This document shows, piece after piece, positions 2,159 through 21,961 of a stretch of 24,896 nt of DNA (the stretch's first letter is position 1; every line of letters begins with the position of its first letter). The stretch spans positions 1 through 24,896 of IMG/VR virus record IMGVR_UViG_3300005099_000002; one strand, written 5' to 3'. Origin of the DNA: a virus. Under the pieces are notes generated by a model. That model did no database searches and was not told where the DNA came from. It saw nothing but the letters and a program-made list of their open reading frames with translations. A program made the position numbers and the translations under genes.

Positions 2159-3345
2159 TACTCATTACTCCATATCAGTTCTTCACTTCCTGTCGAATAA
2201 CCCAACTTGCTGCCGAACGCGGAAAACGTCGGGTGACCTAAAATAAAACCCTCACTAACATATTTCCGGTAAATCCTAACAACAACCTCCATGACTTTCT
2301 CGTCTTGGAACCTGTTGTAGCGGACCGGTGTGGCCTGTAGGTCGGCGTCACGTAAATCTATGTCAACTACTTTTTTAGTTAAATCAGCTAAAATGTCTTG
2401 TAGTTCAACGCTGTACTCTGCGGTTTTAATTCGACACGTACTGGGCGGAACGTTAAACTCCATTTCTAAAACAACGAACTGCGAGTCGATGTTTCGCTCG
2501 GGAATTCTTATTTTGACGAGTTGTCCGGGTGCGAGGTTGCCGACGTCGTCTATAAGTGTCACACATGTGACACGTTGAATAGGGTTAGCCTTACGACGCA
2601 AAATAGCCATCGCCCGCTCATAGGCTAAATCTTCGTTGTCAACGGTGGGGTCCACCACAGTGTCCTCGCGGATTCCCCATGTTTGCTGTGCCTGTAGGTC
2701 TTCGACCTGTACGCAGATGCCTTCTTTACCGTAAAATGTCAAACGTGTGACAACGTCTTTTCCGAGTTTAGGAGCATCGTACGTTAAAATGTTGGTAGTG
2801 CTTGAAAGCGTTAAGCCGCTGTCGAGGGTTTCTCGCGGGAAAAAGTTAAGGTCTTTGTATTCGTCTACGTGAAAGTCGTATTTAGCTATTTCAGCGAGCT
2901 CGTGCATCACCTTTAGCAGCGACACACCTTTCCATTCACGTGTAATATACGTGTTTGTTGTCTGCACGTTGCTTGTCGTTATGTCGGGCGTATAAGTCGG
3001 GATAAGGCCGTCGGAACTATTTGTTATTATGTCGCTTATTTCCCGGTTGCTGTAAGACTTATACACACGTCTATCTAGGAGGCGGGCTGTGTAGTCTCGG
3101 CCGCTTAAATTAACGTAGAACTGTGTTTCCGTTACGTTTTCAACCCGGCCGCGGAACTTTAAAGTCCCGTTGAACTTTATTTTAATGTCGTCGCCGTACT
3201 GGAATTTTCCGGTTAAGTTTTGCGACGGGTCGTAGAGCTTCACGGCGAAGCTTTTAGTGTACTGCGTTACGCTGCTGTTAATTTTCAAGTCGCTAAAATA
3301 ATCGGTGTAATCTACGTCGTTGACAAGTACCGTTACGCTTACCAT
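2158..3345 (-). CDS. Tail tip/baseplate hub protein (Mu gpP/late-control-D-like)
   Basis: GDDIKIKFNG..FRGRV..V.LSGRDY..RL pattern, 395 aa, second gene after TMP. Confidence 0.7.
   Translation of the reverse strand: MVSVTVLVNDVDYTDYFSDLKINSSVTQYTKSFAVKLYDPSQNLTGKFQYGDDIKIKFNGTLKFRGRVENVTETQFYVNLSGRDYTARLLDRRVYKSYSNREISDIITNSSDGLIPTYTPDITTSNVQTTNTYITREWKGVSLLKVMHELAEIAKYDFHVDEYKDLNFFPRETLDSGLTLSSTTNILTYDAPKLGKDVVTRLTFYGKEGICVQVEDLQAQQTWGIREDTVVDPTVDNEDLAYERAMAILRRKANPIQRVTCVTLIDDVGNLAPGQLVKIRIPERNIDSQFVVLEMEFNVPPSTCRIKTAEYSVELQDILADLTKKVVDIDLRDADLQATPVRYNRFQDEKVMEVVVRIYRKYVSEGFILGHPTFSAFGSKLGYSTGSEELIWSNE
2557..2572. repeat. Dispersed palindrome copy (perfect)
   Basis: TGTCACA-CA-TGTGACA, inside hub gene. 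Confidence 0.9.
2737..2752. repeat. Dispersed palindrome copy (1 mismatch)
   Basis: TGTCAAA-CG-TGTGACA, inside hub gene. Confidence 0.8.
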
Positions 3346-3731
3346 TATGTTTCCACCACCTTCATTTCGATTATAACGGTGCTGTCACGTACGCTGCCGC
3401 CGGTTTCAATTTCCCGGACCTTACTTATCTGCACGGTGAAGCTTCTCGCCCCGGTTTCACCCGAAACACCCCATTCAAACGTCCACGGGTCGCCACCCGA
3501 CCGCACGGCGTCAATAACTTCCTCGATTTTTTGTTCCTTTGTTTTACTTGCGTCTGTCTGTGGATGCCAGATAAGCATGATGGTTTGCACTCCGCGGCCG
3601 TCATCTATAATCTCGGTGCGGCCCTGCTGAAACTTGAAAATATGGAGTTCTTTTTCGAGGTCCCGCCGTATTTCCGGTACGGGTTCAAATGTTATAGTTG
3701 TGGCTCCGCGAGATAAACGTATGGTTTTCAC
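3345..3731 (-). CDS. Distal tail (Dit-like) protein
   Basis: 128 aa beta-rich protein directly after TMP with overlapping start/stop. Confidence 0.5.
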   Translation of the reverse strand: MKTIRLSRGATTITFEPVPEIRRDLEKELHIFKFQQGRTEIIDDGRGVQTIMLIWHPQTDASKTKEQKIEEVIDAVRSGGDPWTFEWGVSGETGARSFTVQISKVREIETGGSVRDSTVIIEMKVVET

Positions 3732-5041
3732 GCGGTTCCCCTCCTGTAATATTCGTCCATGAGTTCTTCGAAAATTGCCTGTAAAATCATTTTAAGGTCG
3801 AACGGCGAGGTCGCCATAGTGCTGTGCAGGTCTATTTTAGGTTCAAGTCGGATAACGGTGTAGCTCGGGGAGCCCGGTGGCGTAATGTTTAAGACGGGTG
3901 TAATTTTGTTGACGGTTTTCCGTACGCCGCCGGTGAAAGCTTCTCCGAGTTCTTTACCGTATATTACGATGTTTTTAAGTGGGCCGCGTTCCGGTAGGCT
4001 GCCGCCGAAAAACCCGGCCAACCACTCGGTGAAGTTTTTTACTTGTTCTTCCGCGTAGGTCTTTGCTTTTTCAAACCCGCTTACAAACCATTCAATCAGT
4101 TTTTTACCGGCTTCCATCATCCAGTCTTTTAAACTCGTGAACCAGTCGAGTAAACCGTGTATGGCGTCTTTAGCGTAGTTTGCTGCTGCTTTCCAGTCGC
4201 CGCGAAAAACAGCTTTAACTATGCCAAGCGCGTCTTTTACTAAACGCAGTTGCAGTTTAAGTGACGCGGCGAGTGGTTTGGGTAAACGGTTTAAAACCCC
4301 GCTAACCGTGTTTTCAATTGTTCTCCAATCTCCAGTCCAGACAGCTTTAATAAGGGTCGTTGTTTTCTGCCACGCAGTTTTTAAACTAGATAAAAACTTA
4401 GGGATATTAGTGCTTAGCCAGTCAACTACTATTTTTGTTTTATCTCTTATGCCGAGCCAGTTGTTTTGCCACGCCACGTAAAGTAAGGCTCCCGCGGCGA
4501 TAACAAGGCCGATAACGGGGATAAGTGTGGACATGGATACTCCTAGGACGGTTACGCCGCCGGCGGCTGCACCTGCACCTAAACCCACCGCGGACAGTAA
4601 AGGCCCTAACGCTCCGAGAAAACTTATTACGGGTCCTAGAACGGCGGTAAGTAAAACAACCATGCTTATAAACTGTTGTACGGGTTCCGGTAAGCTAACA
4701 AACCAATCCACCAGTTTACCGAGTAAATTGGCTACGGTTTCAAAAACCGGGCCGAGCTCCTCGCCTAAAACGTAATATACGCGTTCCATTTGGAACTGCA
4801 TTTCAGCCATAGCCACGCTCAAAGTGGGTGACGCTCTTATCATGGCGTACATTGTACCCATTGCGGCGGCGGAAACACTCATAAAAGCGAGATGCCATGT
4901 TCTGAAGGCTTTTTTACTCTCGGTTTCAGCTTCTTTCAGTTCGCCGCGGAATTCTTTTAAGATTTTTTGGGCTGTTTGCAGGTTTTTAACCGCGGCACCT
5001 ATTTCTGCTTCTAGTACGATTTTAAGTTGTTCTACATCCAT
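3728..5041 (-). CDS. Tape measure protein (short, 437 aa)
   Basis: Helical Ala/Leu/Gly-rich, central hydrophobic segment, periodic Trp/Phe, position after chaperone genes. Confidence 0.85.
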   Translation of the reverse strand: MDVEQLKIVLEAEIGAAVKNLQTAQKILKEFRGELKEAETESKKAFRTWHLAFMSVSAAAMGTMYAMIRASPTLSVAMAEMQFQMERVYYVLGEELGPVFETVANLLGKLVDWFVSLPEPVQQFISMVVLLTAVLGPVISFLGALGPLLSAVGLGAGAAAGGVTVLGVSMSTLIPVIGLVIAAGALLYVAWQNNWLGIRDKTKIVVDWLSTNIPKFLSSLKTAWQKTTTLIKAVWTGDWRTIENTVSGVLNRLPKPLAASLKLQLRLVKDALGIVKAVFRGDWKAAANYAKDAIHGLLDWFTSLKDWMMEAGKKLIEWFVSGFEKAKTYAEEQVKNFTEWLAGFFGGSLPERGPLKNIVIYGKELGEAFTGGVRKTVNKITPVLNITPPGSPSYTVIRLEPKIDLHSTMATSPFDLKMILQAIFEELMDEYYRRGTA

Positions 5042-5403: not shown

Positions 5404-5618
5404 GGTGTTAGTCTCCTAAGTTTTTGTTCGGCTTCAAGCCGTTCTTTATGTTCTTCTTTTGCTATCCAATCTAAGATTGCTATTAGCTCGTCGTAGCGGC
5501 GTTTAGGTAACCGTAAGATTTCGCTGTAACTCATGCCGGTGGCCTTCATAAGCCGAAAATCGTCGACGAGAAGCTTTATTTTATAAGGTCCTCCGAAGCC
5601 ATCGAGATAACGCCATAT
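5400..5618 (-). CDS. gpT-like -1 frame extension of the tail assembly chaperone (72 aa)
   Basis: Open -1 frame from the A9 run to TGA at 5402-5400: IWRYLDGFGGPYKIKLLVDDFRLMKATGMSYSEILRLPKRRYDELIAILDWIAKEEHKERLEAEQKLRRLTP. Confidence 0.75.
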   Translation of the reverse strand: MWRYLDGFGGPYKIKLLVDDFRLMKATGMSYSEILRLPKRRYDELIAILDWIAKEEHKERLEAEQKLRRLTP

Positions 5619-5980
5619 TTTTTTTTCTCGGCTTCCGGTAAATCAGTTAACTCCCGGATGGTTTCATAGAGTAGTTCGAAAAGTTCACCGTTAAGCTGTT
5701 TGACTTGTTCGAACGTCATTTTCCGGTTTTCCCGTAGGGCTCCGGCCATAATCATGAGGGCTTTCATTTTGACTACGCTGAAACCTTTGAACTTTATTTG
5801 ACCGGTTTCCATGTTAACGTCGTATAGGGCACATTTTTCCCGTATTTCTTCGTACTCGTAGCGGGTTAAGCCTCTACATTGAAATTTTACGCCGTTGTAT
5901 TCTACGGTTTTTTCTCCGGGTTTGAAGAAAACTTCGTTCACGGGTAGCTCGCCTCGCTGTCCACCACTACTATCTGACAT
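5576..5980 (-). CDS. Tail assembly chaperone (gpG-like)
   Basis: Between tail tube and TMP; ends near slippery GAG AAA AAA AAA; alternative GTG start at 5941 overlapping the tube stop. Confidence 0.8.
   Translation of the reverse strand: MSDSSGGQRGELPVNEVFFKPGEKTVEYNGVKFQCRGLTRYEYEEIREKCALYDVNMETGQIKFKGFSVVKMKALMIMAGALRENRKMTFEQVKQLNGELFELLYETIRELTDLPEAEKKKYGVISMASEDLIK
5618..5626 (-). promoter_or_regulatory. Programmed -1 ribosomal frameshift slippery site (A9)
   Basis: T9 on + strand; fits X XXY YYZ; -1 frame stays open for 72 codons. Confidence 0.7.
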
Positions 5981-6846
5981 GTTTTAGGTTTCAAAACCAG
6001 TTTTTGCAAATATACGGGTTCCTCCGGTAACGCGAAGTCCGGTTCCTCGATTAGACAATCGTTTAACTTTAATGTTAACGTGTCGTTTGCACCGCGTGTA
6101 AAAACTATTTCAACGTCGAAGGCTGTCTGCGGGTCGCTTAACCAGTTATCCCACCAAGAGGTGTCCGTTGGGTGAAACTCTACGACTAGGTCGTTTTCAC
6201 GGCCGCCTTCCGGTAGAAAACTGGGTTTAGCGGACCCTAAATGGTACGCGTGGTCGTATTTCAAATTGTTGGAGAAAGTCCACGAGAAACTTTTAACGCT
6301 GCCTATACTGTTACCGCCGAAAGTTATACTGCTTACCTTCGCGAAACTGTAAGGTTTCGTTGTCACTTCTGCGACAGATGTGCGAGAAGTGTATTTTTTA
6401 ACGTCCATGGCACTGCAGTCTACGCGAACCTTAAGGTCGTCGCCTTCAACACAGCTAATAGTCATCTTGTCGACTTTGCAGCCGAGGTAACGCCGCACAA
6501 AATTGATACTCGGCAAAGCCGCTTCCAATGTGAAGGTTGGCAGTTGGTCAGCGGGGTCAATGGTATGTGTATAAGGGCCCGACCCACTGTCTGTCACCGT
6601 GCCGAGACACATCGTTAGAAACTTGCCGTCTTGCGGATAATATTCGAAGGAAAAAGGAAACTCATATTTTCCTTCTGTTTGAATGTGGAAGTCTCTTTTT
6701 CCTGCATGCCGGTAACGGCGTATTTCACGTTTTTCTTTTGGCGGAAACTCTTTAACTATGCCGAGCCAAACGTTTGGTGTGGCTTCGGTTCCGGGCGAGG
6801 ATTCACGTCCCCATGAAATATACCAAGGTCCGGTTGCATAGCTCAT
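5938..6846 (-). CDS. Major tail tube protein
   Basis: GRES.PGT..., FTLE...RRYLGCKVDKMTIS, VKSFSWTFSNNL motifs typical of tail tube proteins; 302 aa; position. Confidence 0.85.
   Translation of the reverse strand: MSYATGPWYISWGRESSPGTEATPNVWLGIVKEFPPKEKREIRRYRHAGKRDFHIQTEGKYEFPFSFEYYPQDGKFLTMCLGTVTDSGSGPYTHTIDPADQLPTFTLEAALPSINFVRRYLGCKVDKMTISCVEGDDLKVRVDCSAMDVKKYTSRTSVAEVTTKPYSFAKVSSITFGGNSIGSVKSFSWTFSNNLKYDHAYHLGSAKPSFLPEGGRENDLVVEFHPTDTSWWDNWLSDPQTAFDVEIVFTRGANDTLTLKLNDCLIEEPDFALPEEPVYLQKLVLKPKTCQIVVVDSEASYP
6361..6376. repeat. Dispersed palindrome copy (2 mismatches)
   Basis: TGTCACT-TC-TGCGACA, inside tail tube gene. Confidence 0.6.
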
Positions 6847-7038
6847 TTAGTTTTCACCTTCCTTTTTCTTAGGTTTTTTAGAGGGTTCTTTTACGATTTC
6901 AAAATTACCGGTTCCTAAAAGCTGCGTTAAACGCCAGCCTTCCGGCATATCCACTATTTCACCTTCACTTATGCTTAACAGGGCGTCCGCGTAATGTTTT
7001 ATACCGTCTTTAAGCTTAATCTTAACCATTTTCATCAC
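6847..7038 (-). CDS. Small hypothetical virion-module protein
   Basis: 63 aa, coupled overlaps with neighbours, GEIVDMPE motif, Lys-rich tail. Confidence 0.6.
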   Translation of the reverse strand: MMKMVKIKLKDGIKHYADALLSISEGEIVDMPEGWRLTQLLGTGNFEIVKEPSKKPKKKEGEN

Positions 7039-7475
7039 GTATAGACGCGAAATTCAAGTTCTATTGTTTTTCGGTGTAGGGTTTCGCTTCCCGGTGGCGG
7101 ATTATGTCGTACAACCGGTATACGGCCGTCAAGCAAACCGTAATCAGTAAACTGGCTGCGTTTCTCCTTTATCTTCGCCAGTATCTCATCGGTTATTGTG
7201 TCCACTTGTTCTAGTTTAGTGGCGTAGACGTCGACGGCAATACGTATAGTGTGTTCAAACATGCTGCTATACGAACAAAGAGGTATGCCGGGAGAATCGA
7301 TATGATAAACTAAGATAACCGGGTAGTAAACAGTTTTGCTGGCCCGCTGCGTCAAAACAAAGTAGCTTCCACTAGGCCGACTGCTGGCAGCGGGGTCCGT
7401 GATATTGTCTCGGAGAAAGTCGCGGACAAATAGCACCGTTTTTTTGATTATTTGGTTTGGGTCGATTGTGCTCAT
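7035..7475 (-). CDS. Tail terminator/completion protein (SPP1 gp17/lambda gpU-like)
   Basis: YPVILV...IRIAVDVYA...VDTITDEI pattern; position before tail tube. Confidence 0.7.
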   Translation of the reverse strand: MSTIDPNQIIKKTVLFVRDFLRDNITDPAASSRPSGSYFVLTQRASKTVYYPVILVYHIDSPGIPLCSYSSMFEHTIRIAVDVYATKLEQVDTITDEILAKIKEKRSQFTDYGLLDGRIPVVRHNPPPGSETLHRKTIELEFRVYT

Positions 7476-7486: not shown

Positions 7487-7502
7487 TGTCACAAGTGTGA
7501 CC
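7487..7502. repeat. Dispersed palindrome copy (1 mismatch)
   Basis: TGTCACA-AG-TGTGACC, 12 nt upstream of the tail terminator ATG. Confidence 0.85.
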
Positions 7503-8095: not shown

Positions 8096-8097
8096 AA

Positions 8098-8344: not shown

Positions 8345-8707
8345 ATGATGAAAAAAATAAAAATGGAAGAAATAGTCAAGAAATGGGTTAAAAACTATTA
8401 TACAACCGAGAAAGAATTCTCATTGAAACATCCGAAGCTCTACAAGGCTAATTTAGAGTTTTTTGAGGCTGTCAATGATTTACTCAGTGAAATTGTGGAT
8501 TACGCTGTAAAATGGTTTTCACAGCATCCTAAGAGTGAGACCTTTGTGGTTTTTGATTATAATCAACTTTCCTGTTGGACACAAATAATTGTAAAGTTTA
8601 CGCGAAACGGCGAGGTTTTCATTTTCAAAGCTTACCGTTACTCAGACAACTATAAAGTCGGAGAACAAGCACTATACATAAAAGACCTACTTACAGAAAA
8701 AATTTAA
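8345..8707 (+). CDS. Hypothetical protein (antisense accessory gene)
   Basis: 120 aa ORF with promoter/RBS; stop overlaps the convergent gp10-like stop. Confidence 0.75.
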   Translation: MMKKIKMEEIVKKWVKNYYTTEKEFSLKHPKLYKANLEFFEAVNDLLSEIVDYAVKWFSQHPKSETFVVFDYNQLSCWTQIIVKFTRNGEVFIFKAYRYSDNYKVGEQALYIKDLLTEKI

Positions 8708-9153
8708 CCCCTCAATATTTCTTTTATTTTGTTTTTTATCAGTCTTTTTACCAGTTTTTTATTTTTCATAAAAGCGGGACGCATGAATGGTTGCGGTTCG
8801 GTTCCTTGTTTTGCGATTTTTTGGGCGATGGCCCACGCGGCTTCTTCCGGCATACCGTGCAGGTGGGCCCAGCGTTTAAGCGGTTCCACCGGTGGAAAAT
8901 GTGGCAACGTACCGTATTCGACGTAAGGAGCATAAAAAACATTTGTTCCGACTTCAACTTTGTTAAACGCTGTTTGCTCGATGTGTATGCTGGCTCTTAA
9001 ACGACCGGTGTTAACGGGGCAAAACTGTTTAGCGTCAAACTCAATTATGTAGCCGGCAGCCATGAGAACCCGGCTTATTTCACGTTGCAGTTTCTCGGGT
9101 AGCTTTTGCATATCCACTTTGCTTTTTATTTTAACTTTCATGTTCATAGACAT
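8704..9153 (-). CDS. HK97 gp10-family tail completion protein
   Basis: AKQFCPVNTGRLRASI...GTNVFYAPYVEYGT...QPFMRPAF signature. Confidence 0.9.
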   Translation of the reverse strand: MSMNMKVKIKSKVDMQKLPEKLQREISRVLMAAGYIIEFDAKQFCPVNTGRLRASIHIEQTAFNKVEVGTNVFYAPYVEYGTLPHFPPVEPLKRWAHLHGMPEEAAWAIAQKIAKQGTEPQPFMRPAFMKNKKLVKRLIKNKIKEILRG

Positions 9154-9163: not shown

Positions 9164-9229
9164 TTTTACCGGCGGCTGGTAAAACACGTCACATGTGTGA
9201 CATGTCGTTCCGTCATGGGTGACGGAACG
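9164..9229. repeat. Three adjacent inverted repeats in an intergenic gap
   Basis: TTTTACC/GGTAAAA 9164-9184; CGTCACA-TG-TGTGACA 9187-9202; CGTTCCGTCA/TGACGGAACG 9206-9229. Confidence 0.85.
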
Positions 9230-9230: not shown

Positions 9231-9584
9231 TTATTGTTCTAGTTCTGTTAAGCTGATTTTTTTAACGGTTAGGCCGGCGTAGGTTGTGGTTTCCACTCGG
9301 GTTACGATGTATTTGTTTCCGTTGTATTCTAGGCGGTCGCCTTCTTCTACGTTTACGTCGCTGCTAACGTAGGCTTCGAAGTCTACGCCGCCGTATTTCT
9401 CGCCTTCGCTTCGCAGCTCTAAGCTTTTAGCCGTCATAGGTGTGACAAGTATTTTAACGGTTTCCTCCGTCCACGTGGAAGAAGACTCATCGAGCTCGTC
9501 GTAGTCGTTGTACATCGGTGAGCTAAGTTTTTTCAGTGTTGCGTCCACTCCAAGTTTTTTAATGAAAATATTTAGGGATTTCAC
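9231..9584 (-). CDS. Head closure protein (SPP1 gp16-like)
   Basis: EGDRLEYNGNKYIV.RV motif; position after adaptor. Confidence 0.7.
   Translation of the reverse strand: MKSLNIFIKKLGVDATLKKLSSPMYNDYDELDESSSTWTEETVKILVTPMTAKSLELRSEGEKYGGVDFEAYVSSDVNVEEGDRLEYNGNKYIVTRVETTTYAGLTVKKISLTELEQ
9432..9447. repeat. Dispersed palindrome copy (2 mismatches)
   Basis: CGTCATA-GG-TGTGACA, inside head closure gene. Confidence 0.6.
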
Positions 9585-10231: not shown

Positions 10232-10657
10232 TTAAGGTGTTTTGTGTTTTTTCATGTGCGAGTTCAACGCGTTCTGCGAGTCGAACTTTTTACCGCAAAC
10301 CGGGCAAACATATTCTTTTTCCGGTGGTTTCTCCAGTTCCTCTATAAATTCGTTTATTTCTTCTTCGTAGGGTACCTTTAACTGTTTTAAGAGTTCTTTT
10401 GCGGCTGCGAACGGCAGTTTTTTCAACGCCGCTAAAATTCTCGGCCCAAGCTTCTTTTTCAACTCCGGGCTAACAAGTTTCTCGATGTCTTGTTCCTCGG
10501 GGAAAACCTCTTCGTAACCCATGTTTCTTAGTAAGATGGCGTCTTCCTCGTTGTCCACGGTGCAGAGATGGTTTTGGAAATAGAAGGCTTTGTCCGGTGT
10601 AGGCCTAGCTATTTCGTTTTTCCCCTCAGACCTAAAAGTCCAAGTTTTCTTACCCAT
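10232..10657 (-). CDS. Head-module protein with C-terminal classical C2H2 zinc finger
   Basis: YVCPVCGKKFDSQNALNSHMKKH matches C-x2-C-x3-F-x5-L-x2-H-x3-H. Confidence 0.8.
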   Translation of the reverse strand: MGKKTWTFRSEGKNEIARPTPDKAFYFQNHLCTVDNEEDAILLRNMGYEEVFPEEQDIEKLVSPELKKKLGPRILAALKKLPFAAAKELLKQLKVPYEEEINEFIEELEKPPEKEYVCPVCGKKFDSQNALNSHMKKHKTP

Positions 10658-10934: not shown

Positions 10935-11972
10935 TTATGGTAGGTTTATTATTTTAGCACAGAATTGTTCCGCTTTAACTATGCCAACCTCGTAGACTTT
11001 TAGCATAAACTTGTAGCTGTCGTTGGTTCTCGCCAGTTCCTCCATGACCACGTCTTGCAGCACTCTCATCTCTATTACGCTGGTATCTAAGACTAAGAAA
11101 ACCCGTTTCTGGGCGGTGTTAGGCATATTTCTGCAAGGCATGATTGGAATGCCGTCGAAGTTTATAGCCTTTATACCGTAGTTTAACGTCCCCGAAACGT
11201 CCATGTAGGTTATGTTTTGCTGCAGTAGCGATTTTATTTTGTTGAAGGTCCGCCAATCGGTTACCATAAGGTTGGGGTCTCCGCCGTGCTCAATACATTG
11301 TCTAATAGCGTCTCTTATGGCTGCGACGCTTATCTCAGTGGTGCCACCGTTATTCGTAATGTTGGTGGTTATTTGTTTTAGGATTCCGTCGTAGCCGTTA
11401 GCATTATAATCGTATATAGCTGTGTCGTCACCGGAGTTAGTTGTACCCCTCAATAAGGTTTTTTCTTCCTTTAACCGTAGGGCCTCGGTGTGAATTTTAA
11501 TTTCCTGTTGCAACGCGTTTATGTATTCTTTGCTTGCGGCTACTGCAGGCCCGGTAAGTCGGCCCACAGAGTACAGGAACTTGATGTTAGCGGTTTTCTG
11601 CTCGTAGGTTGTGTCTGATTCATCTAGGGCGGCGTCTTCCGCCAGCCACGTGGCCGATGGCTTAGCGGTTATACGGTTGTATACCGCGGCTTTCCCGCGG
11701 TTAGTCACTCTCCTAATAACATCTAGGAACGGTGTTTTCTGCTTGGTTAGGTCTATGATTTCGGGGTCCACGTAGACCGGCACAATTGTGCCCACCGTGC
11801 TCAAAGTATAGGCTTTTTCGATGTCTGGTTCAAGCATTTTTCTCAGTTCTGGCCTTCTGTCGATTCCTCTCCATGGGTCCCAGTAGACGGTGCCGTCGTA
11901 CAGGTCTTTGAAACAGATTCTATATGCGAGGTCGGACATAAAGTTTTCACTTATTCTTCCAAACACGGACAT
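10935..11972 (-). CDS. Major capsid protein (HK97 fold)
   Basis: IVPVYVDPEII...TPFL, WLAEDA, GYDGI, IRDAI...GGDP..MV motifs; 345 aa; follows protease. Confidence 0.9.
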   Translation of the reverse strand: MSVFGRISENFMSDLAYRICFKDLYDGTVYWDPWRGIDRRPELRKMLEPDIEKAYTLSTVGTIVPVYVDPEIIDLTKQKTPFLDVIRRVTNRGKAAVYNRITAKPSATWLAEDAALDESDTTYEQKTANIKFLYSVGRLTGPAVAASKEYINALQQEIKIHTEALRLKEEKTLLRGTTNSGDDTAIYDYNANGYDGILKQITTNITNNGGTTEISVAAIRDAIRQCIEHGGDPNLMVTDWRTFNKIKSLLQQNITYMDVSGTLNYGIKAINFDGIPIMPCRNMPNTAQKRVFLVLDTSVIEMRVLQDVVMEELARTNDSYKFMLKVYEVGIVKAEQFCAKIINLP

Positions 11973-13108
11973 TACTCATCAACTCCAAAACGTTTTTTAA
12001 GAGCCATCTTCAAAATGCTTTCTTCTTTAGGTGTTTTTTCTTCTTGTTCGGGTGCCGCGTTCTCTTTCACGGCTTTCCTAACCGGTAGCTCTTTCAGTTT
12101 TTCTTCGACGGTTTTTTCGATTAGCGACTTAATTGTCACAGGTGTGACGTCCGCCTGTGCTTGGGCGGCCTCAGCTTGCTGTTCCTGTTTTTCCTGCCAC
12201 AGGTCTCTCAAAACTTCTTCTATTTTTGCTAGGCGTTCCTCTATTGTTTTTATTCTTTCCTCCAAATTTGACTCCTCCGTTTCGGATTCTTCTCCTCCTT
12301 CTTGTTGTTCTTGTTGTTGAGAGGTCTCTTCGACCTCTTTAAACAAAATAAAGTCGACAAGTTCTTTTTCGACGTCGGGGTCAACCGCCTTTATTTTACC
12401 GGCCCGCCTACCAATATAGGCACACAATCGCTGGGCGTTTTCTTTTTTAAGACCCCGACATCTCATAAAGTACTCTACGCACCCGTCGAACCCGTTTTTA
12501 AAGGTTCCATCCGGGTTAACGTAACGGTCACGGCAACTACTACCTGCTTTCACGGTTTCTTGAGACGTTTCCTTCACCACCTCGGGTTTTTCAATTGAAT
12601 CTAAACTTTTACTAAGCACTTCGATAAGGGTCTCCGGGTTCGCCGGAACATCCACCAAACTTACCTCGTATAGCTCCATTTTCGTTATTCTGCGGACCGG
12701 GCGGCCCAACGTCTTATCATAGTAGCGTTCGGCCTCTAATATTCGGCCGCCAATACTGTACGCTTTAAGTATGCCTTCTTTGACTAGTTGCCACGCTTCA
12801 TCAGCCGCCTTAATCCCCTTCAAAATCTTAGCTTTAAGTCTTAGGCCTTTGTGGTCGATTTTAAGGTCCAACGCCTTACCAATAGGCTGCTTCTGATGCA
12901 TGTAGCGTATCGTAGGGAACATCATGTATTTTTGGGCGGCCTCCTTCAACGCCTCACGTGTGACAATCTCATATTCCCGGTCCACCGTCTCCGTACTAGC
13001 ATAACCCTCAATTATTCTTTGTTCGTCGTCGAGAATTTTCTGGTCGGTCGCCGTCATAACCGCTTGAAACGGCACACTCATCTTAATTATTTCACGTTCA
13101 CCGCTCAC
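11972..13108 (-). CDS. HK97-type prohead protease with C-terminal scaffold-like region
   Basis: IEGYAS...DREYE, MHQKQPIGK, AYSIGG, LYEVSLVDVPANP; acidic linker and coiled-coil tail. Confidence 0.92.
   Translation of the reverse strand: MSGEREIIKMSVPFQAVMTATDQKILDDEQRIIEGYASTETVDREYEIVTREALKEAAQKYMMFPTIRYMHQKQPIGKALDLKIDHKGLRLKAKILKGIKAADEAWQLVKEGILKAYSIGGRILEAERYYDKTLGRPVRRITKMELYEVSLVDVPANPETLIEVLSKSLDSIEKPEVVKETSQETVKAGSSCRDRYVNPDGTFKNGFDGCVEYFMRCRGLKKENAQRLCAYIGRRAGKIKAVDPDVEKELVDFILFKEVEETSQQQEQQEGGEESETEESNLEERIKTIEERLAKIEEVLRDLWQEKQEQQAEAAQAQADVTPVTIKSLIEKTVEEKLKELPVRKAVKENAAPEQEEKTPKEESILKMALKKRFGVDE
12134..12149. repeat. Dispersed palindrome copy (1 mismatch)
   Basis: TGTCACA-GG-TGTGACG, in protease/scaffold linker. 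Confidence 0.85.
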
Positions 13109-13332
13109 TTCAGAAACCTCGCTGAAATAAATCTAACAAAATAAGCCGCAGCAATATATAATAAAATGCCGTAATAAACCCCGCAGCAAAAACTATAACA
13201 TCTACAAAAACCAAGTTTAAAAGAAATTAAAAAACAAACACCAACCTAAAAAATTAAACAAAATAAAGGGGTTGGGGGTTGTCGGGTCTGGTGTGTCCGG
13301 GGTTGGGTTGTTTTATTTAAGGGTTTTTGTTG

Positions 13333-13347
13333 TTACTATTGTAGTAA
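13333..13347. promoter_or_regulatory. Third copy of the TTACTA-N3-TAGTAA operator
   Basis: TTACTA-TTG-TAGTAA, 3 nt beyond the hjc stop. Confidence 0.6.
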
Positions 13348-13350
13348 AAG

Positions 13351-13719
13351 TTAGATGGGGTATATTTGTATGTATTTTGTTTGTTTTTCTTTTATTGCTA
13401 GGATTAGTTTTGCGTTTAGGGTTTTTGCTATTTGTATTTGTCGTTTCATTTGGGTTTTTGGGTAGTAGTTGTTTGTTTTACATTCGATTAATATTATTTC
13501 TTTTGTGTTTGGTTCTATTGCTATGAGGTCAATAGGTTTACTTCCTGCAAGTCTAAAAACTATATAGCCTTTATTTTCAAATCGCCGTTTGACCTTATAT
13601 TCAAATTTTCTAGCATAAATCATTCTTGCTTTCTGAATCTTCCTGTTTTTCTCTTTTTCCAAAAGCTCGAAAAAACGTTTTTTCTGCAATATATTTAATT
13701 TGTTTTCCATTTTTATCAC
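13351..13719 (-). CDS. hjc: Archaeal Holliday junction resolvase-like PD-(D/E)xK nuclease (ATG at 13710 likely start)
   Basis: FEYKVKRRFENKGYIVFRLAGSKPIDLIAI...IILIECKT matches the Hjc motif. Confidence 0.8.
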   Translation of the reverse strand: MIKMENKLNILQKKRFFELLEKEKNRKIQKARMIYARKFEYKVKRRFENKGYIVFRLAGSKPIDLIAIEPNTKEIILIECKTNNYYPKTQMKRQIQIAKTLNAKLILAIKEKQTKYIQIYPI

Positions 13720-13725
13720 TTACAT

Positions 13726-13881
13726 CTAAATGGGTGATATTATTCGGGTGAAGCCGCAGTTTGGGCATTTGTATTCTCTTGCTGGGATTAGTTCTGCTGA
13801 GGCTGCGTCGAAAAAATAGCATATTTTTGTTTTTAGTTTGTGGTTGCAGAGCGGGCAGACGTTAACTTTTAGAACATTCAT
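13726..13881 (-). CDS. Zn-ribbon protein (51 aa; not in ORF track)
   Basis: MNVLKVNVCPLCNHKLKTKICYFFDAASAELIPAREYKCPNCGFTRIISPI. Confidence 0.7.
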   Translation of the reverse strand: MNVLKVNVCPLCNHKLKTKICYFFDAASAELIPAREYKCPNCGFTRIISPI

Positions 13882-14011
13882 TTAAGTGGGCCTCTTTTAG
13901 TTTTTTATGGGTTTCACGGTTGTCTGCGATTAGTATGGTGCCGCAGTAAGGGCACACCCAAATATAGGCTTCTCTATCCCTAAGCAGCGTGTTAAGTTCT
14001 TTTAGACCCAT
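13862..14011 (-). CDS. Zn-finger-like protein (49 aa; not in ORF track)
   Basis: MGLKELNTLLRDREAYIWVCPYCGTILIADNRETHKKLKEAHLNECSKS; overlaps portal stop and next start. Confidence 0.65.
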   Translation of the reverse strand: MGLKELNTLLRDREAYIWVCPYCGTILIADNRETHKKLKEAHLNECSKS

Positions 14012-16433
14012 TTTTGCCACCATTTTTTATTATTCCGAAGAGTTTAAGCCAACTGTAAACGGCAAAATGAGTTACACCGAGTTCGTCGGCAATTTTACGC
14101 GTACTTAAACCGCTACTATATTTTTCCCGCAAATAATCATATATATTAATGTTGTATTTTTGTTCGAGTTCAATCATGGTCTTTGTTTTTTTGATGTAGC
14201 GGCCGTCTTCGGTTAGAATCGCGTTTTTACTTATTATTGGTACGATTGTGCAGCGGCAGTTTGGATGTAAGGGTGGTACGTCTATTTGGCCGAAACGCGG
14301 CGAAATAAACTTAGCTAGCAGCGGTACTTTTTGGTTGGCCATTTCAAGGCAGTCGGGACACGTACGGTCATCGTAGGTTACAATCCACTGTTTGCCTTCG
14401 ACCACGTCTGATTTTTGGTAGCCGATTAAACGGCCCATATTCGACGCTCTTATTGTCTCGGTGCGTGCGATTCTCTCGGCTTCCCAGTCCGTTAACGTGC
14501 TAAACTCCTCTTTTATCAGCTCGCCCATTTTATCTATTGATAGGCCGGTTTGCAGGCCTTCGATTAAAACGTTTCTTATACGGTCTCTTACTTGTTCATA
14601 TTTGGATGTGGCTAAGAGCTGCGTATAGGTTTCAATGTAATGTACGGCTAACGGGTCCTCCAAGTCGAAGGTGGCCTCTAAGTTGAGTTCTTGGGCGGCT
14701 TTACGGAAACCTAGCAAAATGGCGTTTAACATGTATTTTTTAAGGAACTCTTTGAACTCTTGGGCGTGGCCGCTTAAAACCTTTTCAATAAGGTCCCGGA
14801 AAACTTTAACATCCTTTTCCAGTAGGGGTTTACCGTTAAGCTGTTTCATGGCTTCCGCGAATTTCTCGCTTTTAAGGAAATTTATGAGTTCGTTTACATG
14901 TTTTTTAAAAAGTTTTTGTAGGTCTTCGGTGAACTTTTTTTCGAAGGTTTTTAGGCCCCATATTTCCCGTGGGTCCCGTGGGTCGCTGCTTGGGTTGGGG
15001 AGTTTGTAGAATTCGTCGCGGTGTGTCACATGTGTGACATTGGTCTCGGTGTTCTCGCTCGGTATAATGGGATTATCGGTTGTTAGGGCTTTTTTATTTG
15101 CGAGTGTTATTGGCGGTATTGATGGTTGTGTTCCGGTTACGGATTCGAACGGGTAGTTTTGCGGCATAAAAAGGGGTCTGTTTCCCCATGGAACCGGGTC
15201 TAACCCCATTTCTCGGCGGACTTCGTTTATTGTTTTAAGGCCGGTTCTTATTTCACGTTCCCATATTGCTATTTGCCGTTCTTTTTCGAAACGGTCGCGG
15301 TGCGGTGCAAACTTAAACATAACGTCGTCGAAACCGAACTCCGGAATAATCTCCGTGTTAATGTGATATTCTAAAAGTCTCAGTAAGGGTCCTAGTCCTT
15401 TACGTCGGAAAACTTCGCTTTGCTCCTCGCTTGTGGCCCGGTTAACTGTCTCCGTTAATCCCAGCTCGTTCGGTGTAACTTTGAACGCGGCCATTACGAG
15501 CTTGAAATACCATCTTTGACTTTCTAAGAACTGCATTTCTTTATTTGTAAGCGTAAACTGCTGCCATTTAAAATCACGGTTAATGATAGGTAGTTTGTGG
15601 GGTTTTCCTTTTACTTCGGTTTCCCACCATCTAATAAAGTTCTCAAACTCTGTTTCACTTATGTCCAATAAAGATAGTACGCCGCTGGGTATGCTTTCGC
15701 TGAAATATTTCTCGTTCCACTCTAAGCTTTTAATTAAGGTTTTTACGACGGTTAAAATGGATTGTACAGGTGAGAAACCGTAACAAGAATAAGAACGCGG
15801 ATTTTGCATAATATAGACGATTTCTTTTTCCGTGAAAAATATCGGTTTTGATTGCGGGTTTTTAAAACTATACTGATAGTAGCCCTGTACCACGCCGTGT
15901 TCATCAACCTTTTTAAGAAATGTGGCTCCGTCTGCGGCGTAAATTTCACGTAGTTGGCTTTTTTCGTCGAAAACCTTAACGATAACACCGGCATCTATCT
16001 CCAAGATGTCTCTTACGACTTGCCGTAATATTTGTTCGAAGCTTTCATCGTTAATGTTGGGGTTTTCGAAAAACCGTTTAACTATACGGCAGTGTTCTAA
16101 AACGATGGGGTTGTTGACGTGTTTCGGGTCCTTTGGAACAATGTCCCATTCTACGCTGCAAACCTCGTCGATAAGAGTGTCGATACATATTCGGCACCAC
16201 GCGGTTTGAGCCATTTCCCGTATTTCGTAGATGTTTACTTTCCGCGGGACACCGTAAGGTGCACGCCAAAACCAGTGGGGCGTAACGGTTTTACGGTAAC
16301 TTCTTTTTTCTTTTACACCTTGATAAACCGTTATATTTTGATAGGCGGCGTCGACTACGCCCTTCTCCACCGTATCATAGGTTAATGTAGGGTTTTGTTT
16401 CGACCGTTTAAAAAACTTGAATATACGCGACAT
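13992..16433 (-). CDS. Portal protein fused to MuF (SPP1 gp7-like) domain and C-terminal HTH
   Basis: HK97-type portal motifs (YGFSP, EMQFLE, FKVTPNELG); MuF motifs (AERIARTET, DDRTCPDC, PPLHPNCRC); HTH GLSTRKIADELGVTHFAVYSWLK. Confidence 0.92.
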   Translation of the reverse strand: MSRIFKFFKRSKQNPTLTYDTVEKGVVDAAYQNITVYQGVKEKRSYRKTVTPHWFWRAPYGVPRKVNIYEIREMAQTAWCRICIDTLIDEVCSVEWDIVPKDPKHVNNPIVLEHCRIVKRFFENPNINDESFEQILRQVVRDILEIDAGVIVKVFDEKSQLREIYAADGATFLKKVDEHGVVQGYYQYSFKNPQSKPIFFTEKEIVYIMQNPRSYSCYGFSPVQSILTVVKTLIKSLEWNEKYFSESIPSGVLSLLDISETEFENFIRWWETEVKGKPHKLPIINRDFKWQQFTLTNKEMQFLESQRWYFKLVMAAFKVTPNELGLTETVNRATSEEQSEVFRRKGLGPLLRLLEYHINTEIIPEFGFDDVMFKFAPHRDRFEKERQIAIWEREIRTGLKTINEVRREMGLDPVPWGNRPLFMPQNYPFESVTGTQPSIPPITLANKKALTTDNPIIPSENTETNVTHVTHRDEFYKLPNPSSDPRDPREIWGLKTFEKKFTEDLQKLFKKHVNELINFLKSEKFAEAMKQLNGKPLLEKDVKVFRDLIEKVLSGHAQEFKEFLKKYMLNAILLGFRKAAQELNLEATFDLEDPLAVHYIETYTQLLATSKYEQVRDRIRNVLIEGLQTGLSIDKMGELIKEEFSTLTDWEAERIARTETIRASNMGRLIGYQKSDVVEGKQWIVTYDDRTCPDCLEMANQKVPLLAKFISPRFGQIDVPPLHPNCRCTIVPIISKNAILTEDGRYIKKTKTMIELEQKYNINIYDYLREKYSSGLSTRKIADELGVTHFAVYSWLKLFGIIKNGGKNGSKRT
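15024..15039. repeat. Dispersed palindrome copy (perfect)
   Basis: TGTCACA-TG-TGTGACA, in portal-MuF linker. Confidence 0.9.
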
Positions 16434-17121: not shown

Positions 17122-17153
17122 TTTATAAAAGTATACCGGTATACTTTTATAAA
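17122..17153. repeat. 32-bp perfect palindrome
   Basis: TTTATAAAAGTATACCGGTATACTTTTATAAA is its own reverse complement. Confidence 0.95.
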
Positions 17154-17180
17154 TTTGTATTTTTATATTTTTCTAACCGG

Positions 17181-17537: not shown

Positions 17538-17745
17538 ATTTTTTCAACTCGTAAATGTTTTTCTCTAAGGTTAAAATTATTTCAGCTAATGTTTTTTCTT
17601 TATCTAAAAAATGGAACAAACGGTATTTACCATCTTCACAACTTACCCATGAAAGTTGTTTACGGTCGAGGTTTAAAACTTTAGCTGTTGTTTTTAGCCA
17701 CGCATCTAACCGTTTTCTTATTTGTTTTGAAAGTATTTTAGACAC
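17512..17745 (-). CDS. Hypothetical protein
   Basis: 77 aa, overlapping both neighbours. Confidence 0.6.
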   Translation of the reverse strand: MSKILSKQIRKRLDAWLKTTAKVLNLDRKQLSWVSCEDGKYRLFHFLDKEKTLAEIILTLEKNIYELKKYDEPWKYE

Positions 17746-18118
17746 GCTCCTCGATTACTTCGAGTTTTCCGCCGCAGTACCGGCACCGCCATAACAGTTG
17801 TTGTGCGATGTTTTCCGGGTAGGTTACCCTGCACTTGGGGCAGCGGCCCCACCGGATAACCCGGGTTCCTTCAAGCCGTTTTTTCAGTTTTTTGTGTTCC
17901 GGAGTCATCATCGTGGGGATAAATACTGGCAGCGGTATTTGCGGGTTTCCGGGCCAGTGACGTTCAAGATACTCTTTGAACGCTCTTAATGCGAGTTCGC
18001 TGAAGCTTATTTGTTCCCGTTTAGCCAGTTTACGCATTTTCTCATATACGTCTCGTTCTTCTTCTATTACTTGCAGTAAAATTTGCTTAGGAACGCCTTT
18101 TTTTAAAGGTCTAGGCAT
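17738..18118 (-). CDS. RHH plus Zn-ribbon transcription regulator
   Basis: YEKMRKLAKREQISFSELALRAFKEYL (RHH helices) plus CPKC...CRYCG; GGGTGA RBS. Confidence 0.75.
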   Translation of the reverse strand: MPRPLKKGVPKQILLQVIEEERDVYEKMRKLAKREQISFSELALRAFKEYLERHWPGNPQIPLPVFIPTMMTPEHKKLKKRLEGTRVIRWGRCPKCRVTYPENIAQQLLWRCRYCGGKLEVIEERV

Positions 18119-18282
18119 TTTTCACCCTCCGAAAGTCTTTTTTCAAGAAAATAAATATAGGTTGGGCATAGCCGCCAGTACTCGTCTATTAAGGTTTCAT
18201 CGGGATACAAAATGAAGTCGCAGTACTGGCCGCTAAGCTTACATTTTTTTGTGTCGGTTAAATAGGGACATTTTTTAGACAT
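18103..18282 (-). CDS. Cys-rich small protein (59 aa; not in ORF track)
   Basis: MSKKCPYLTDTKKCKLSGQYCDFILYPDETLIDEYWRLCPTYIYFLEKRLSEGEKCLDL; GGTGGGG upstream; overlaps next gene. Confidence 0.6.
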   Translation of the reverse strand: MSKKCPYLTDTKKCKLSGQYCDFILYPDETLIDEYWRLCPTYIYFLEKRLSEGEKCLDL

Positions 18283-18288
18283 TTGTAA

Positions 18289-18545
18289 ACCCCACCTTTG
18301 TTTCCAGTGGAACTTAACTTGGGCCTGTTTGCTAAGTTAAGTTATTAATATATATTAATAGTTAATATATATTAATGTTGAGTTTAGTTTATGGGTTTTT
18401 CCAGTGGATGCAGTGGAAATAAAGGGGTTATAACAGTGTTTCAGTTTTCCGACGTTAAAAAGAAAATAAAAAACCGGGTTAAGTTAAGGGTTTTCGACCT
18501 TTACTTCGTTAGGAAGTTCGCAAGACCTATACTTCCACTGGAAAA
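18289..18545. other. Putative replication origin: ORB elements flanking an AT-rich unwinding element
   Basis: Minus-strand GTTCCACTGGAAACAAAGGTGGGGT (18289-18313); plus-strand TGCAGTGGAAATAAAGGGGT (18409-18428); cores TTCCAGTGGAT (18399-18409) and TTCCACTGGAA (18533-18543); AT core 18334-18392. Confidence 0.75.
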
Positions 18546-18561
18546 TGTCACACGTGTGACA
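18546..18561. repeat. Dispersed palindrome copy (perfect, fully symmetric)
   Basis: TGTCACACGTGTGACA, next to an ORB core at the origin edge. Confidence 0.9.
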
Positions 18562-18828
18562 TCACAGAAAGTGGTGCAACTTACTAACCTTAGACAACTG
18601 AAACCACGCCAACACATCTTCAACACTATTTGTTAAGAGCCGTCTAATGGCTTCGAAAAGATATTTTGCTCCTTTTGCCGGCGGCGGATAAAGCTTTTGT
18701 TCATTTTCAAAAAAGAATTTGATTAAGGTGAAAAGTTCACGGTAAGTTATTTGTTCCCAGCCGTCCGTCTTAACCAAAACAATCTTATCGTTAACGGTTT
18801 TATTTCCCGGTTTAAACTTAAACTCCAT
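18562..18828 (-). CDS. Hypothetical protein
   Basis: 88 aa ORF with GGTGA RBS. Confidence 0.7.
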   Translation of the reverse strand: MEFKFKPGNKTVNDKIVLVKTDGWEQITYRELFTLIKFFFENEQKLYPPPAKGAKYLFEAIRRLLTNSVEDVLAWFQLSKVSKLHHFL

Positions 18829-18831
18829 TAT

Positions 18832-19149
18832 TTATTCACCTTTATAGTGCGATAAATCTACCCATGGCTGAACATAGCCACAATAAGGGCAAACCGCTAA
18901 GTCTGCGGGAATAGCAGCTTCGCATTTCGGGCAAAATTTAAACTCTTTTTTCTTTGTTTTTTCCACGTGACATACCGTGTCGTCCAACCGTCTAAGACTG
19001 TACAAATATAAGATAAACGCTAATAGCCACGTTAATTCAATGAAAGGAGTATTTACATCAAGTATGTCGCTGGGGTCCGGTATAATCGCCAATAAAAAAA
19101 TAAGAAAAATAATGAAAAACTCATGTTTTCTTAGTCTTATTTTAATCAC
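18832..19149 (-). CDS. Membrane protein with C-terminal double Zn ribbon
   Basis: Two hydrophobic segments around IPDPSDILD; FCPKC...VCPYCG. Confidence 0.75.
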   Translation of the reverse strand: MIKIRLRKHEFFIIFLIFLLAIIPDPSDILDVNTPFIELTWLLAFILYLYSLRRLDDTVCHVEKTKKKEFKFCPKCEAAIPADLAVCPYCGYVQPWVDLSHYKGE

Positions 19150-20086: not shown

Positions 20087-20093
20087 TTATTTT

Positions 20094-20962: not shown

Positions 20963-21615
20963 GCTTTTCGAAGTGTTTTAACATTAACATTCGTGAATTT
21001 TTTAAGCTCGGAAATTAGCCACTTGGTTTTTTCCAGCTCGGGTTCCGGTAGCTTATGGTTGTAGTTGTCGTAGCCCACGTAGACCGTTCGCGGATTTATT
21101 TTTTCTAGGAAGTTAACGAACACGTTGTTGAAATCTAAAATCGGCTCTATTGCTATGAACTTATCATCCCACGGCAGTTTTTTCATTGCCAATAGACGTT
21201 CCATTGGGTGCGGTGCGTCGCTTACATCCCAGTCTCGGTCGCTTTCAATAGTGGCCCCTAAAATAACGTTCGACGGGAAAAGTTCGAGAAAATCAAAATA
21301 TCTTAAAGGGTTTTTTGTTAAAAGAAGAAACCGGCTGTCCGGGTTTTTTTCAATGGTATGTAAAACCTGTACAATCCACGTGTCCGGAACCTCGTAACAA
21401 AACAAGTCACCCATGTCGACCACAAAAACTATTTTATTTTTAAACCGACGGTTCAAACGCTCAGGATGTAAATGTGGAACAAACCTGTAACATTTTTTGC
21501 AGCGGTTTTTTTGACGCCTAGCTAAACGGCGAGCCCAACAGTAACAACAATTATGTGTGCAGCCGACCACAGGGTTCCATGTAACTTTAACCATGCTAAA
21601 CATGCGGCTTGTCAA
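20947..21615 (-). CDS. DUF5131 (phage Gp37/Gp68) radical-SAM-like protein
   Basis: TWNPVVGCTHNCCYCWA (CxxxCxxC), VFVVDMGDLF, LLTKNP, IEPIL signatures. Confidence 0.9.
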   Translation of the reverse strand: MTSRMFSMVKVTWNPVVGCTHNCCYCWARRLARRQKNRCKKCYRFVPHLHPERLNRRFKNKIVFVVDMGDLFCYEVPDTWIVQVLHTIEKNPDSRFLLLTKNPLRYFDFLELFPSNVILGATIESDRDWDVSDAPHPMERLLAMKKLPWDDKFIAIEPILDFNNVFVNFLEKINPRTVYVGYDNYNHKLPEPELEKTKWLISELKKFTNVNVKTLRKAWWEK

Positions 21616-21961
21616 TTCTCACACCTCGAGCATACATGTAAATGTCTTCAAAGTTTTTGAAAAGCATTAGAAAACCGCCGTAAGGCACAATACGCGGATA
21701 AATACATCTAACATATAGATGTTTACCGCGTCTAAGGTAGCCGTTGAAGTGAGGGCAGCCTTGGCAGTGTTTTAGCACGTTGACCGTGCTGTCGGATTTA
21801 AAACATGTCTCACGTGTGACTTCCACGAACGCCACGCGACTAGCAACATTAAACTTAACCCTTCTAATGTGTTCGTTTTCCATTTTGGGCGGCTGGATGA
21901 GTGAGGGAGGGGAGTATGAACGGAAACAAAAAAAAGTTGAACACAACAGGTTTACATCCAA
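21596..21961 (-). CDS. Hypothetical Cys-containing protein (true start may be ATG 21883)
   Basis: CQGCPHF...VRC motif; T8 tract in the 5' extension suggests the shorter start. Confidence 0.55.
   Translation of the reverse strand: MDVNLLCSTFFCFRSYSPPSLIQPPKMENEHIRRVKFNVASRVAFVEVTRETCFKSDSTVNVLKHCQGCPHFNGYLRRGKHLYVRCIYPRIVPYGGFLMLFKNFEDIYMYARGVRIDKPHV
21806..21821. repeat. Dispersed palindrome copy (2 mismatches)
   Basis: TGTCTCA-CG-TGTGACT, inside a hypothetical gene. Confidence 0.65.

Follow-up and report, generated by a model that had tools for sequence, protein, structure and literature searches.

The DNA analysed here, a 24,896-bp stretch covering positions 1 to 24,896 of the viral IMG/VR record IMGVR_UViG_3300005099_000002 (hereafter referred to as the window; estimated completeness, 70%), encodes a head-tailed virus with nearly all of its genes on the minus strand, including a portal–MuF–helix-turn-helix (HTH) fusion, a protease/scaffold protein, an HK97-type capsid protein, head–tail adaptors, a tape measure protein and a baseplate hub. 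Scattered through these genes is a 16-bp palindrome, TGTCACA-NN-TGTGACA. A search with TGTCACANNTGTGACA allowing up to two mismatches returned ten matches, all at coordinates listed in an earlier note on this DNA, of which three are perfect, four have one mismatch and three have two. In 100 dinucleotide-preserving shuffles of the window, the motif occurred 0.04 times on average and never more than once. The recount confirms the ten copies and their mismatch counts. Lone half-sites outside the full sites are at background level (one TGTCACA and one TGTGACA), and therefore only the complete palindrome is enriched. Here we report that this palindrome is kept as DNA, in one viral lineage, and tentatively propose that it serves as a docking site for a symmetric protein.

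Two close relatives share the palindrome. The first (G1; IMGVR_UViG_3300014887_000001, L017 and L018) is a complete 35.9-kb genome with terminal repeats, deposited in the opposite orientation and about 95% identical to the window; it carries 13 copies. All but one of the ten window sites have a G1 orthologue. The second (G2; L021) is a 9.1-kb fragment of another close relative, with four copies. We rebuilt a sister virus (S; L265 and L314) from two overlapping loci whose overlap is 100% identical; its capsid protein and terminase are 86% and 74% identical, respectively, to their counterparts, and its guanine-plus-cytosine (GC) content is 36–38%. No site with two or fewer mismatches occurs in about 35 kb of S, nor does any other over-represented palindrome, and more distant relatives also lack motif sites. 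The motif is specific to the lineage of the window, G1 and G2.

Seven of the window copies are intragenic and three are non-coding, and the widest gap between neighbours is 3624 bp. The baseplate-hub-like gene 2158-3345 contains two copies: a perfect one with centre CA at 2557..2572, which encodes VTCVT and is kept in G1 at 9379, and a one-mismatch copy at 2737..2752, which is identical in G1 at 9199. The copy at 6361..6376, in the tail gene 5938-6846, is the weakest of the ten and a doubtful member, with two mismatches in the window and three in its G1 orthologue. A one-mismatch intergenic copy at 7487..7502 lies 12 nt upstream of the ATG of gene 7035-7475, beside its GGTGG ribosome-binding site, and its G1 counterpart at 4450 differs only at a central base. 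The other intergenic copy with one mismatch, at 9187..9202, is located between a hairpin and the start of the neck gene 8704-9153, within a stretch of about 60 bp that S lacks, and is perfect in G1 at 2861. Further along, the head-closure-like gene 9231-9584 holds a two-mismatch copy at 9432..9447 (one mismatch in G1, at 2616); the protease/scaffold gene 11972-13108 holds a one-mismatch copy at 12134..12149, in its C-terminal linker (DVTPVT) and about 160 bp upstream of the start of the capsid gene; and the portal gene 13992-16433 holds a perfect copy at 15024..15039, in the portal-to-MuF linker (NVTHVT), which differs in G1 at the centre only. A perfect and fully palindromic copy with centre CG, at 18546..18561, comes right after the stop codon of 18562-18828, which encodes an 88-residue protein, and abuts the first element resembling an origin recognition box (ORB) in a 279-bp non-coding region. 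The last copy, with two mismatches, lies at 21806..21821 within the open reading frame (ORF) 21596-21961 and is identical in G1 at 24499. The non-coding copies thus stand in a gene leader (7487), beside a hairpin (9187) and next to the ORB-like putative origin (18546), as the earlier note had placed them.

Every intragenic copy in the window, G1 and G2 begins at a third codon position and is read as T-GTC-ACA-NNT-GTG-ACA, that is, V-T-x-V-T, which confirms the common frame previously noted for the seven window copies. When synonymous codons were permuted among positions with all proteins and the overall codon usage kept (300 shuffles), the intragenic copies averaged 0.18 in the window and 0.24 in G1, versus 7 and 9 observed. 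All V-T-x-V-T peptides, three of three in the window and five of five in G1, are encoded by the motif, and the motif-less relatives have no V-T-x-V-T at orthologous positions. Distant relatives carry TAEPVQ in the portal in place of NVTHVT and AE--PST in the protease/scaffold protein in place of DVTPVT; both stretches are unaligned or divergent in the relatives, a linker-like behaviour that bears out their earlier description as linkers. In the terminase and in a 277-residue protein, the relatives carry related but non-identical residues at the motif positions. Since the codon-preserving shuffles fall far below the observed counts, selection acts on the DNA, as had been suspected, and since the peptide is not kept in motif-less relatives, the V-T-x-V-T peptides arise as a side effect of the DNA signal, at places where the proteins can accommodate them.

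The deviations from the consensus are informative about what is recognized. They are one-sided (for example, A for C at position 6, T for A at position 5, or a change at position 1 or 16), and in neither the window nor the G1 copies does the opposite arm change in compensation, a pattern that speaks against an RNA stem. In the nine orthologous pairs, substitutions separate the window from G1 at 2 of 126 specified positions (14 per site) and at 3 of 18 central positions (Fisher P = 0.014), with 21 differences among 720 positions in the 40-bp flanks; the arms have thus been preserved, and the centre is free to vary. The central dinucleotide varies (CG, CC/GG, CA/TG and AG), and its asymmetry, where it is CC or GG, obeys no strand rule. 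The window sites are as good as those of G1, except for two extra T-to-C changes at position 1. The flanks of the viral copies are unrelated to each other, with no conserved flank or longer repeat unit of the kind expected of a repetitive extragenic palindrome or a miniature inverted-repeat transposable element.

On the circular map of G1, the 13 sites are spread more evenly than expected of random placement, whether judged by the largest gap (P = 0.02) or by the coefficient of variation (P = 0.03); a post hoc merging of the two close pairs lowered these values to 0.005 and 0.002. Many copies of the one site run through both early and late genes, a stoperator-like dispersal; one perfect copy abuts the ORB-like region, near which a ParABS system would have its sites clustered, and the remaining copies are evenly distributed. 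A TATA-like box stands within 60 bp of only one of the 13 sites in G1; the sites do not overlap core promoters as classical operators do, and an association with promoters was rejected for most of them. The lone TATA-associated site overlaps the 5′ end of an 81-residue Cas2-like gene in a part of the genome missing from the window, where the palindrome lies over the transcription start, 2 nt before the ATG, with the TATA box 17 nt upstream of the site. The Cas2-like protein (81–83 residues; G1 18119-18364, L018:119-364, minus strand; G2 5406-5657) starts with MRIWIVDYDI and follows a β-α-β-β-α-β sequence pattern, and it has no match in Pfam and no sequence match in the PDB. The same early region of G1, also missing from the window, contains a tRNA-Ile gene with anticodon TAT at 18883-18959 (L018:883-959).

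Several observations bear on the host of the virus. The window encodes an Hjc-type resolvase and many zinc ribbons, and the named homologues of its SPFH gene belong almost all to Bathyarchaeia, Brockarchaeota or other Thermoproteota. In the 279-bp non-coding gap (18283-18561), an AT-rich core is surrounded by ORB-like elements: TTTTCCAGTGGAAG, TCCACTGGAAAAACCC, and GTTCCACTGGAAAC with a G-string directly after it. Neither a viral replication protein nor a tyrosine integrase (PF00589) was detected in the complete genome of G1. A 5.3-kb contig (Ga0180301_10016687) carries a CRISPR array of about 60 repeats of 37 nt (CTTTCAATCCTCTTTTATGAGGATTTCTTTTTGCGAG) with spacers of 36–51 nt, two of which match S at 46 of 47 positions; one of these two also matches the window capsid gene (11392-11432) at 38 of 41. 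The resolvase, zinc ribbons, ORB-like elements, SPFH homologues and CRISPR array together suggest that the host is probably archaeal. None of 401 sampled Thermoproteota genomes yielded a match to the CRISPR repeat, and genome-contig searches with the capsid and SPFH proteins alone identified no host. Two observations on the head module stand apart from the palindrome: the 141-residue head-module protein 10232-10657 ends in a C2H2 zinc finger (PF13912, E = 3e-8), and its counterpart in one relative (L266) has C2H2 zinc-finger matches too, although weak; and a 155-kb contig (JGI24729J20445_1000016) carries four copies of a capsid gene 41% identical to that of the window, spaced exactly 45,776 bp apart; this contig, from a distant relative, is probably either a concatemer or the product of assembling tandem copies of the genome.

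The motif-bearing lineage also differs from S in its overall composition. GATC is absent from the window, G1 and G2, versus 90, 131 and 34 expected, and occurs 72 and 82 times, a normal frequency, in the two pieces of S; the GC content has moved from about 37% to 42% in the GATC-less lineage. G1 additionally lacks CATATG, GCTAGC and AGCGCT, and is enriched in CCGCGG (24 versus 3 expected) and CGGCCG (15 versus 3). In 36 genomes of Bathyarchaeia, Brockarchaeota and Thermoproteota (about 63 Mb), the motif was not found at up to one mismatch, versus five matches for a reversed control pattern, and it was not found at up to three mismatches in 65 kb of host-like cellular contigs whose SPFH gene is 73–74% identical to the viral one. 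From these sampled genomes and contigs, we rejected the host chromosome as the source of the motif.

A comparison of G1 with S narrows the search for a binding protein. Their structural genes are homologous (33–86% identity), whereas the early/accessory module (G1 18–30 kb) is largely unrelated. Present in G1 and absent from S are a Zn-ribbon/winged-helix protein, the 88-residue protein of 18562-18828 (its stop codon adjoins the perfect copy at 18546), the Cas2-like protein, VWA, ThiF, DUF5131 and SPFH proteins, and a ParB_N–methylase fusion. The candidate binder that we prefer is the Zn-ribbon/winged-helix protein (22386..22952; 188 residues), which has an N-terminal CxxC Zn ribbon joined by a Pro-rich linker to a C-terminal winged helix that is followed by a terminal helix, and which gave weak Pfam matches to AbiEi_4 and MarR_2. 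In an AlphaFold model built from a four-sequence alignment, the winged helix spans residues 88–170, with a predicted local distance difference test score of about 80–89, and a Foldseek search with this model returned dimeric regulators of the PadR/LmrR/MarR type (probability 0.96, E about 0.02). Regulators from these families recognize palindromic operators in dimeric form. The protein has three matches only among 1.84 billion representative proteins, and a PDB sequence search with three candidate proteins and an ESM Atlas look-up of the winged-helix protein yielded nothing useful. The C-terminal HTH of the portal (window 13992-14145) and a ribbon-helix-helix (RHH)–Zn protein (17738-18118) have homologues in the motif-less S; the portal-fused HTH is conserved across the virus group, including motif-less relatives (L315 and L266), and its recognition-helix residues vary. 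The portal HTH and the RHH protein are therefore ancestral and have a lower standing as binders, so that among the binders named previously the winged-helix protein stands as the only lineage-specific one.

By direct reading, the perfect copy at 18546 matches the bacterial parS sequence TGTTTCACGTGAAACA at 12 of 16 positions, as first noted, and the motif matches the degenerate parS consensus TGTTNCACGTGNAACA at 14 of 16; the chance that a random half-site matches five of the six specified parS positions is about 0.5%. In the window, no ORF matches PF02195 (ParB_N). In G1, PF02195 matches one gene, encoding 298 residues in which ParB_N is accompanied by a weak HTH_3 match and by the N-terminal portion of a D12 adenine methylase; the product is apparently truncated and belongs to the common phage type of ParB_N–methylase fusion. 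This gene lies in a module swap between the two 95%-identical genomes (window 13292-14011 versus G1 32751-34335), where the window carries instead an Hjc-like nuclease (13351-13719) and two tiny zinc-ribbon ORFs. Since the window sites equal those of G1 although the ParB_N gene has been replaced, the array persists without that gene. No ParA, CbiA or AAA_31 ATPase was found in any window or G1 ORF scanned with Pfam or PHROGs.

A motif scan of 2.9 million viral contigs and 185,000 genomes found the same 16-mer in other lineages. In the metagenome-assembled genome (MAG) G015, it lies right after the stop codon of a canonical ParB gene (ParB_N, HTH_ParB and ParB_C; contig C7), with further copies 130 bp and 1.4 kb beyond and DnaA-box-like sequences in the vicinity. 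In Streptacidiphilus fuscans (contig C23, 350–470 kb), ten copies occur in 120 kb around a ParB homologue, and the 80 kb examined there contain no canonical parS. In both bacteria the motif evidently serves as the chromosomal parS, and this natural parS variant reads TGTCAC(A/G)CGTGTGACA. In MAGs of Opitutus sp. and Kiritimatiellae, the core lies within a conserved 38-bp perfect palindrome, GTGCAAATCGA-core-TCGATTTGCAC or GTGCGGAAAAA-core-TTTTTCCGCAC, with 10–16 copies per genome and canonical parS also present. A few DPANN-type archaeal MAGs have perfect copies in TATA-rich intergenic spots beside primase, XPF and nuclease genes. Among viruses, about a dozen contigs of HMO-2011-type marine podophages, with a terminase 86% identical to that of Puniceispirillum phage HMO-2011, carry 2–8 perfect copies, with a sub-lineage motif TGTCACA-SS-TGTGACA found at loci including L155, L205, L190, L153 and L014. 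These copies are clustered in the early region, mostly intergenic and just upstream of the ribosome-binding sites of early genes, and look like ordinary early operators. HMO-2011 itself (NC_021864.1) has no copy of the motif and carries three AGTCCG-N4-CGGACT in the same placement. No protein common to these phages and the window virus was found with blastp or cluster hidden Markov models. With no common protein, and with HMO-2011 itself using a different palindrome, we rejected a shared binder; the identity of the motif between the window virus and these phages is probably a coincidence. Because there are only 4^7 possible half-sites and the search was driven by the motif, we treat the cross-lineage identities as analogies and not as evidence of a shared binder, although the likeness to parS still deserves attention. 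A literature search for the 16-mer matched only an unrelated paper on propionate catabolism in Shewanella, and a survey of Bathyarchaeia viruses makes no mention of such repeats.

Several explanations were weighed against these observations. Chance or a compositional artefact, or selection of the V-T-x-V-T peptide at the protein level, has the shared reading frame in its favour and nothing else; neither type of shuffle ever came near the observed counts, three to four of the copies are non-coding and the peptide is missing from relatives at the same positions, so that we regard this explanation as refuted and its probability as negligible. The palindrome could instead act at the level of RNA or transcription, its 6-bp hairpin serving as a terminator, pause or processing site. 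A T-run (TTTT or TGTTTT in the sense direction) does follow 4 of the 13 G1 sites, two of them at operon ends. However, the other nine have none, most sites lie in the middle of long genes, and the mismatches break pairs without compensation, so that what is conserved is sequence and not pairing alone; we therefore rejected an RNA hairpin for most sites and consider this explanation very unlikely overall. About as unlikely are sites for the C-terminal HTH of the portal–MuF protein that would organize or anchor the DNA in the capsid or mark it for packaging. The portal does bear this HTH, one site lies within its gene and the 12 portal subunits come close to the number of sites, about 13, but the same HTH is present in S and in a further relative (L266), both of which lack the motif and any other enriched palindrome.

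Two further explanations are more substantial, though each remains improbable. One holds that the sites form a parS-type centromere or loading array, on which a viral or host clamp of the ParB family, dependent on cytidine triphosphate (CTP), loads to partition, condense or silence an episome, in the manner of KorB of RK2 or SopB of N15. The agreement with the degenerate parS consensus, the identical 16-mer beside ParB in G015 and Streptacidiphilus fuscans, the ParB_N and HTH protein of G1, the perfect copy abutting the putative origin, the regular spacing and the lack of a detected integrase in G1 are all in its favour. The parS-like system envisaged in the earlier note thus gains a parS-family sequence that flanks ParB genes in two bacteria, and loses ground in that the window has no ParB or ParA. 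Against it, the G1 gene is a common phage-type methylase fusion and has given way to an Hjc-like gene in the window, the scanned ORFs include no ParA-type ATPase, the sampled archaeal genomes have no motif copy, and a match drawn from 185,000 genomes with so few possible half-sites can be a coincidence. On balance, we consider a ParB-read array rather unlikely. The other, which we rate slightly lower, is adaptation to a factor of a new host, in which a host regulator, chromatin protein or defence component would recognize the palindrome to the benefit of the virus. It is in the motif lineage, and not in S, that GATC was purged and the GC content shifted, a host-specific sculpting, and the perfect copies in the DPANN-type MAGs stand in intergenic, TATA-rich places. 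However, the 63 Mb of the clade nearest by the SPFH gene and the host-like contigs contain no motif, and no host combining an enriched motif with a matching GC content was found among the genomes searched; the host factor listed earlier among possible binders finds no support in the archaeal genomes sampled.

The enrichment, the DNA-level selection, the symmetry with a free centre, the regular spread, the lack of a promoter link, the lineage specificity and the absence of copies from the sampled host-clade genomes fit a binding-site array for a symmetric dimeric protein whose function calls for coverage of the entire genome. Our preferred reading, which we hold to be plausible but somewhat short of probable, is that a sequence-specific protein of two-fold symmetry (a dimer), encoded by the virus, docks at the palindromes and acts genome-wide in silencing, maintenance or both. 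We infer, from the pattern of the sites and the gene content, that a protein binds them, which protein it is and that it silences or maintains the genome. In the model that we propose, the lineage would have installed the sites genome-wide by codon choice (GTC-ACA-NNT-GTG-ACA) in tolerant linkers and at a few intergenic spots. The binder would be encoded in the lineage-specific early/accessory module, with the Zn-ribbon/winged-helix protein 22386-22952 as first choice. Occupied sites would act across the genome and not at promoters, blocking or dampening transcription through the structural operons, and they may also hold a non-integrating genome, replicating from a host-type origin, in a quiescent, maintained state. 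Several points weigh against this docking-site model. The promoter of the 22386-22952 gene itself has no motif site, and the contigs of two remote homologues of its product have no dispersed palindrome, so that they offer no covariation evidence for the winged-helix candidate. The T-run subset, 4 of the 13 G1 sites, could have a terminator-like role, and the evenness statistic is only moderately significant. The complete purge of GATC shows strong host-driven sculpting of the sequence, and a host factor may yet be responsible. Of the notion, put forward earlier, of a protein coating the genome at regular sites, the regularity is upheld by the G1 spacing, and any of segregation, condensation, packaging or silencing may apply.

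A comparison with known systems suggests a working resemblance to stoperators or to the operator sites of KorB, with membership in neither, as the sites are palindromic and the window encodes no ParB-family clamp. According to a published account of the cluster A mycobacteriophages (PMC9283540), the stoperators bound by repressors of the L5 gp71 type are dispersed, including in late genes, and stop elongation away from promoters; they are asymmetric, bound by a monomer and dependent on orientation. As in that account, many copies of one short site extend over a whole phage genome. The sites described here are, by contrast, palindromic, with no orientation relative to transcription, and lie mostly in coding sequence, in a lineage with no detected integrase (G1) and probably an archaeal host; the stoperator analogy drawn in the earlier note therefore fails on the symmetry and orientation of the site. 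KorB of RK2, which slides from its sites, serves in partition as well as in long-range silencing, and its OB sites, like the present ones, are short palindromes dispersed over the replicon, some of them far from promoters (PMC11790492). However, KorB is a ParB-family CTPase, acting as a CTP-dependent clamp, of which the window encodes none, and the OB sequence is unrelated. Chromosomal parS sites share with the palindrome a length of 16 bp, a CACGTG-type centre and, in two bacteria, the identical sequence beside ParB, but the window has no ParB or ParA, its sites are dispersed and the central CG is not conserved. The prophage N15 is likewise non-integrating, maintained as a low-copy plasmid, with several separate inverted-repeat centromere sites, IR1–4, bound by SopB (PMC7205306); it has four sites together with SopA and SopB, whereas G1 has 13 and no Sop or Par proteins were found. 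The sub-lineage of HMO-2011-type phages carries up to eight perfect copies of exactly this motif, but in clusters upstream of ribosome-binding sites in the early region and mostly between genes.

A bolder extension, which we offer as speculative and on present indications improbable, is that of an archaeal virus with an ORB origin that does not integrate and is kept silent and inherited through a 'holocentric' parS-like array written into its coding sequence and read by a non-ParB protein, the Zn-ribbon/winged-helix protein, or by an unseen archaeal clamp. If true, archaeal viruses would thereby gain their first described genome-wide operator or centromere array; no archaeal-virus counterpart was found in the literature searched. 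The genome-wide arrays of a single site known so far come from a few bacterial replicons, namely the cluster A mycobacteriophages, RK2 and N15, and these have revealed unusual modes of long-range silencing and partition. The present array is a clean case, with about 13 sites and strong statistics, and the sister virus S has neither the sites nor the early gene module. Collectively, our findings show how strongly a signal in the DNA can govern the choice of codons, and even some short stretches of peptide, in the structural proteins of a virus.

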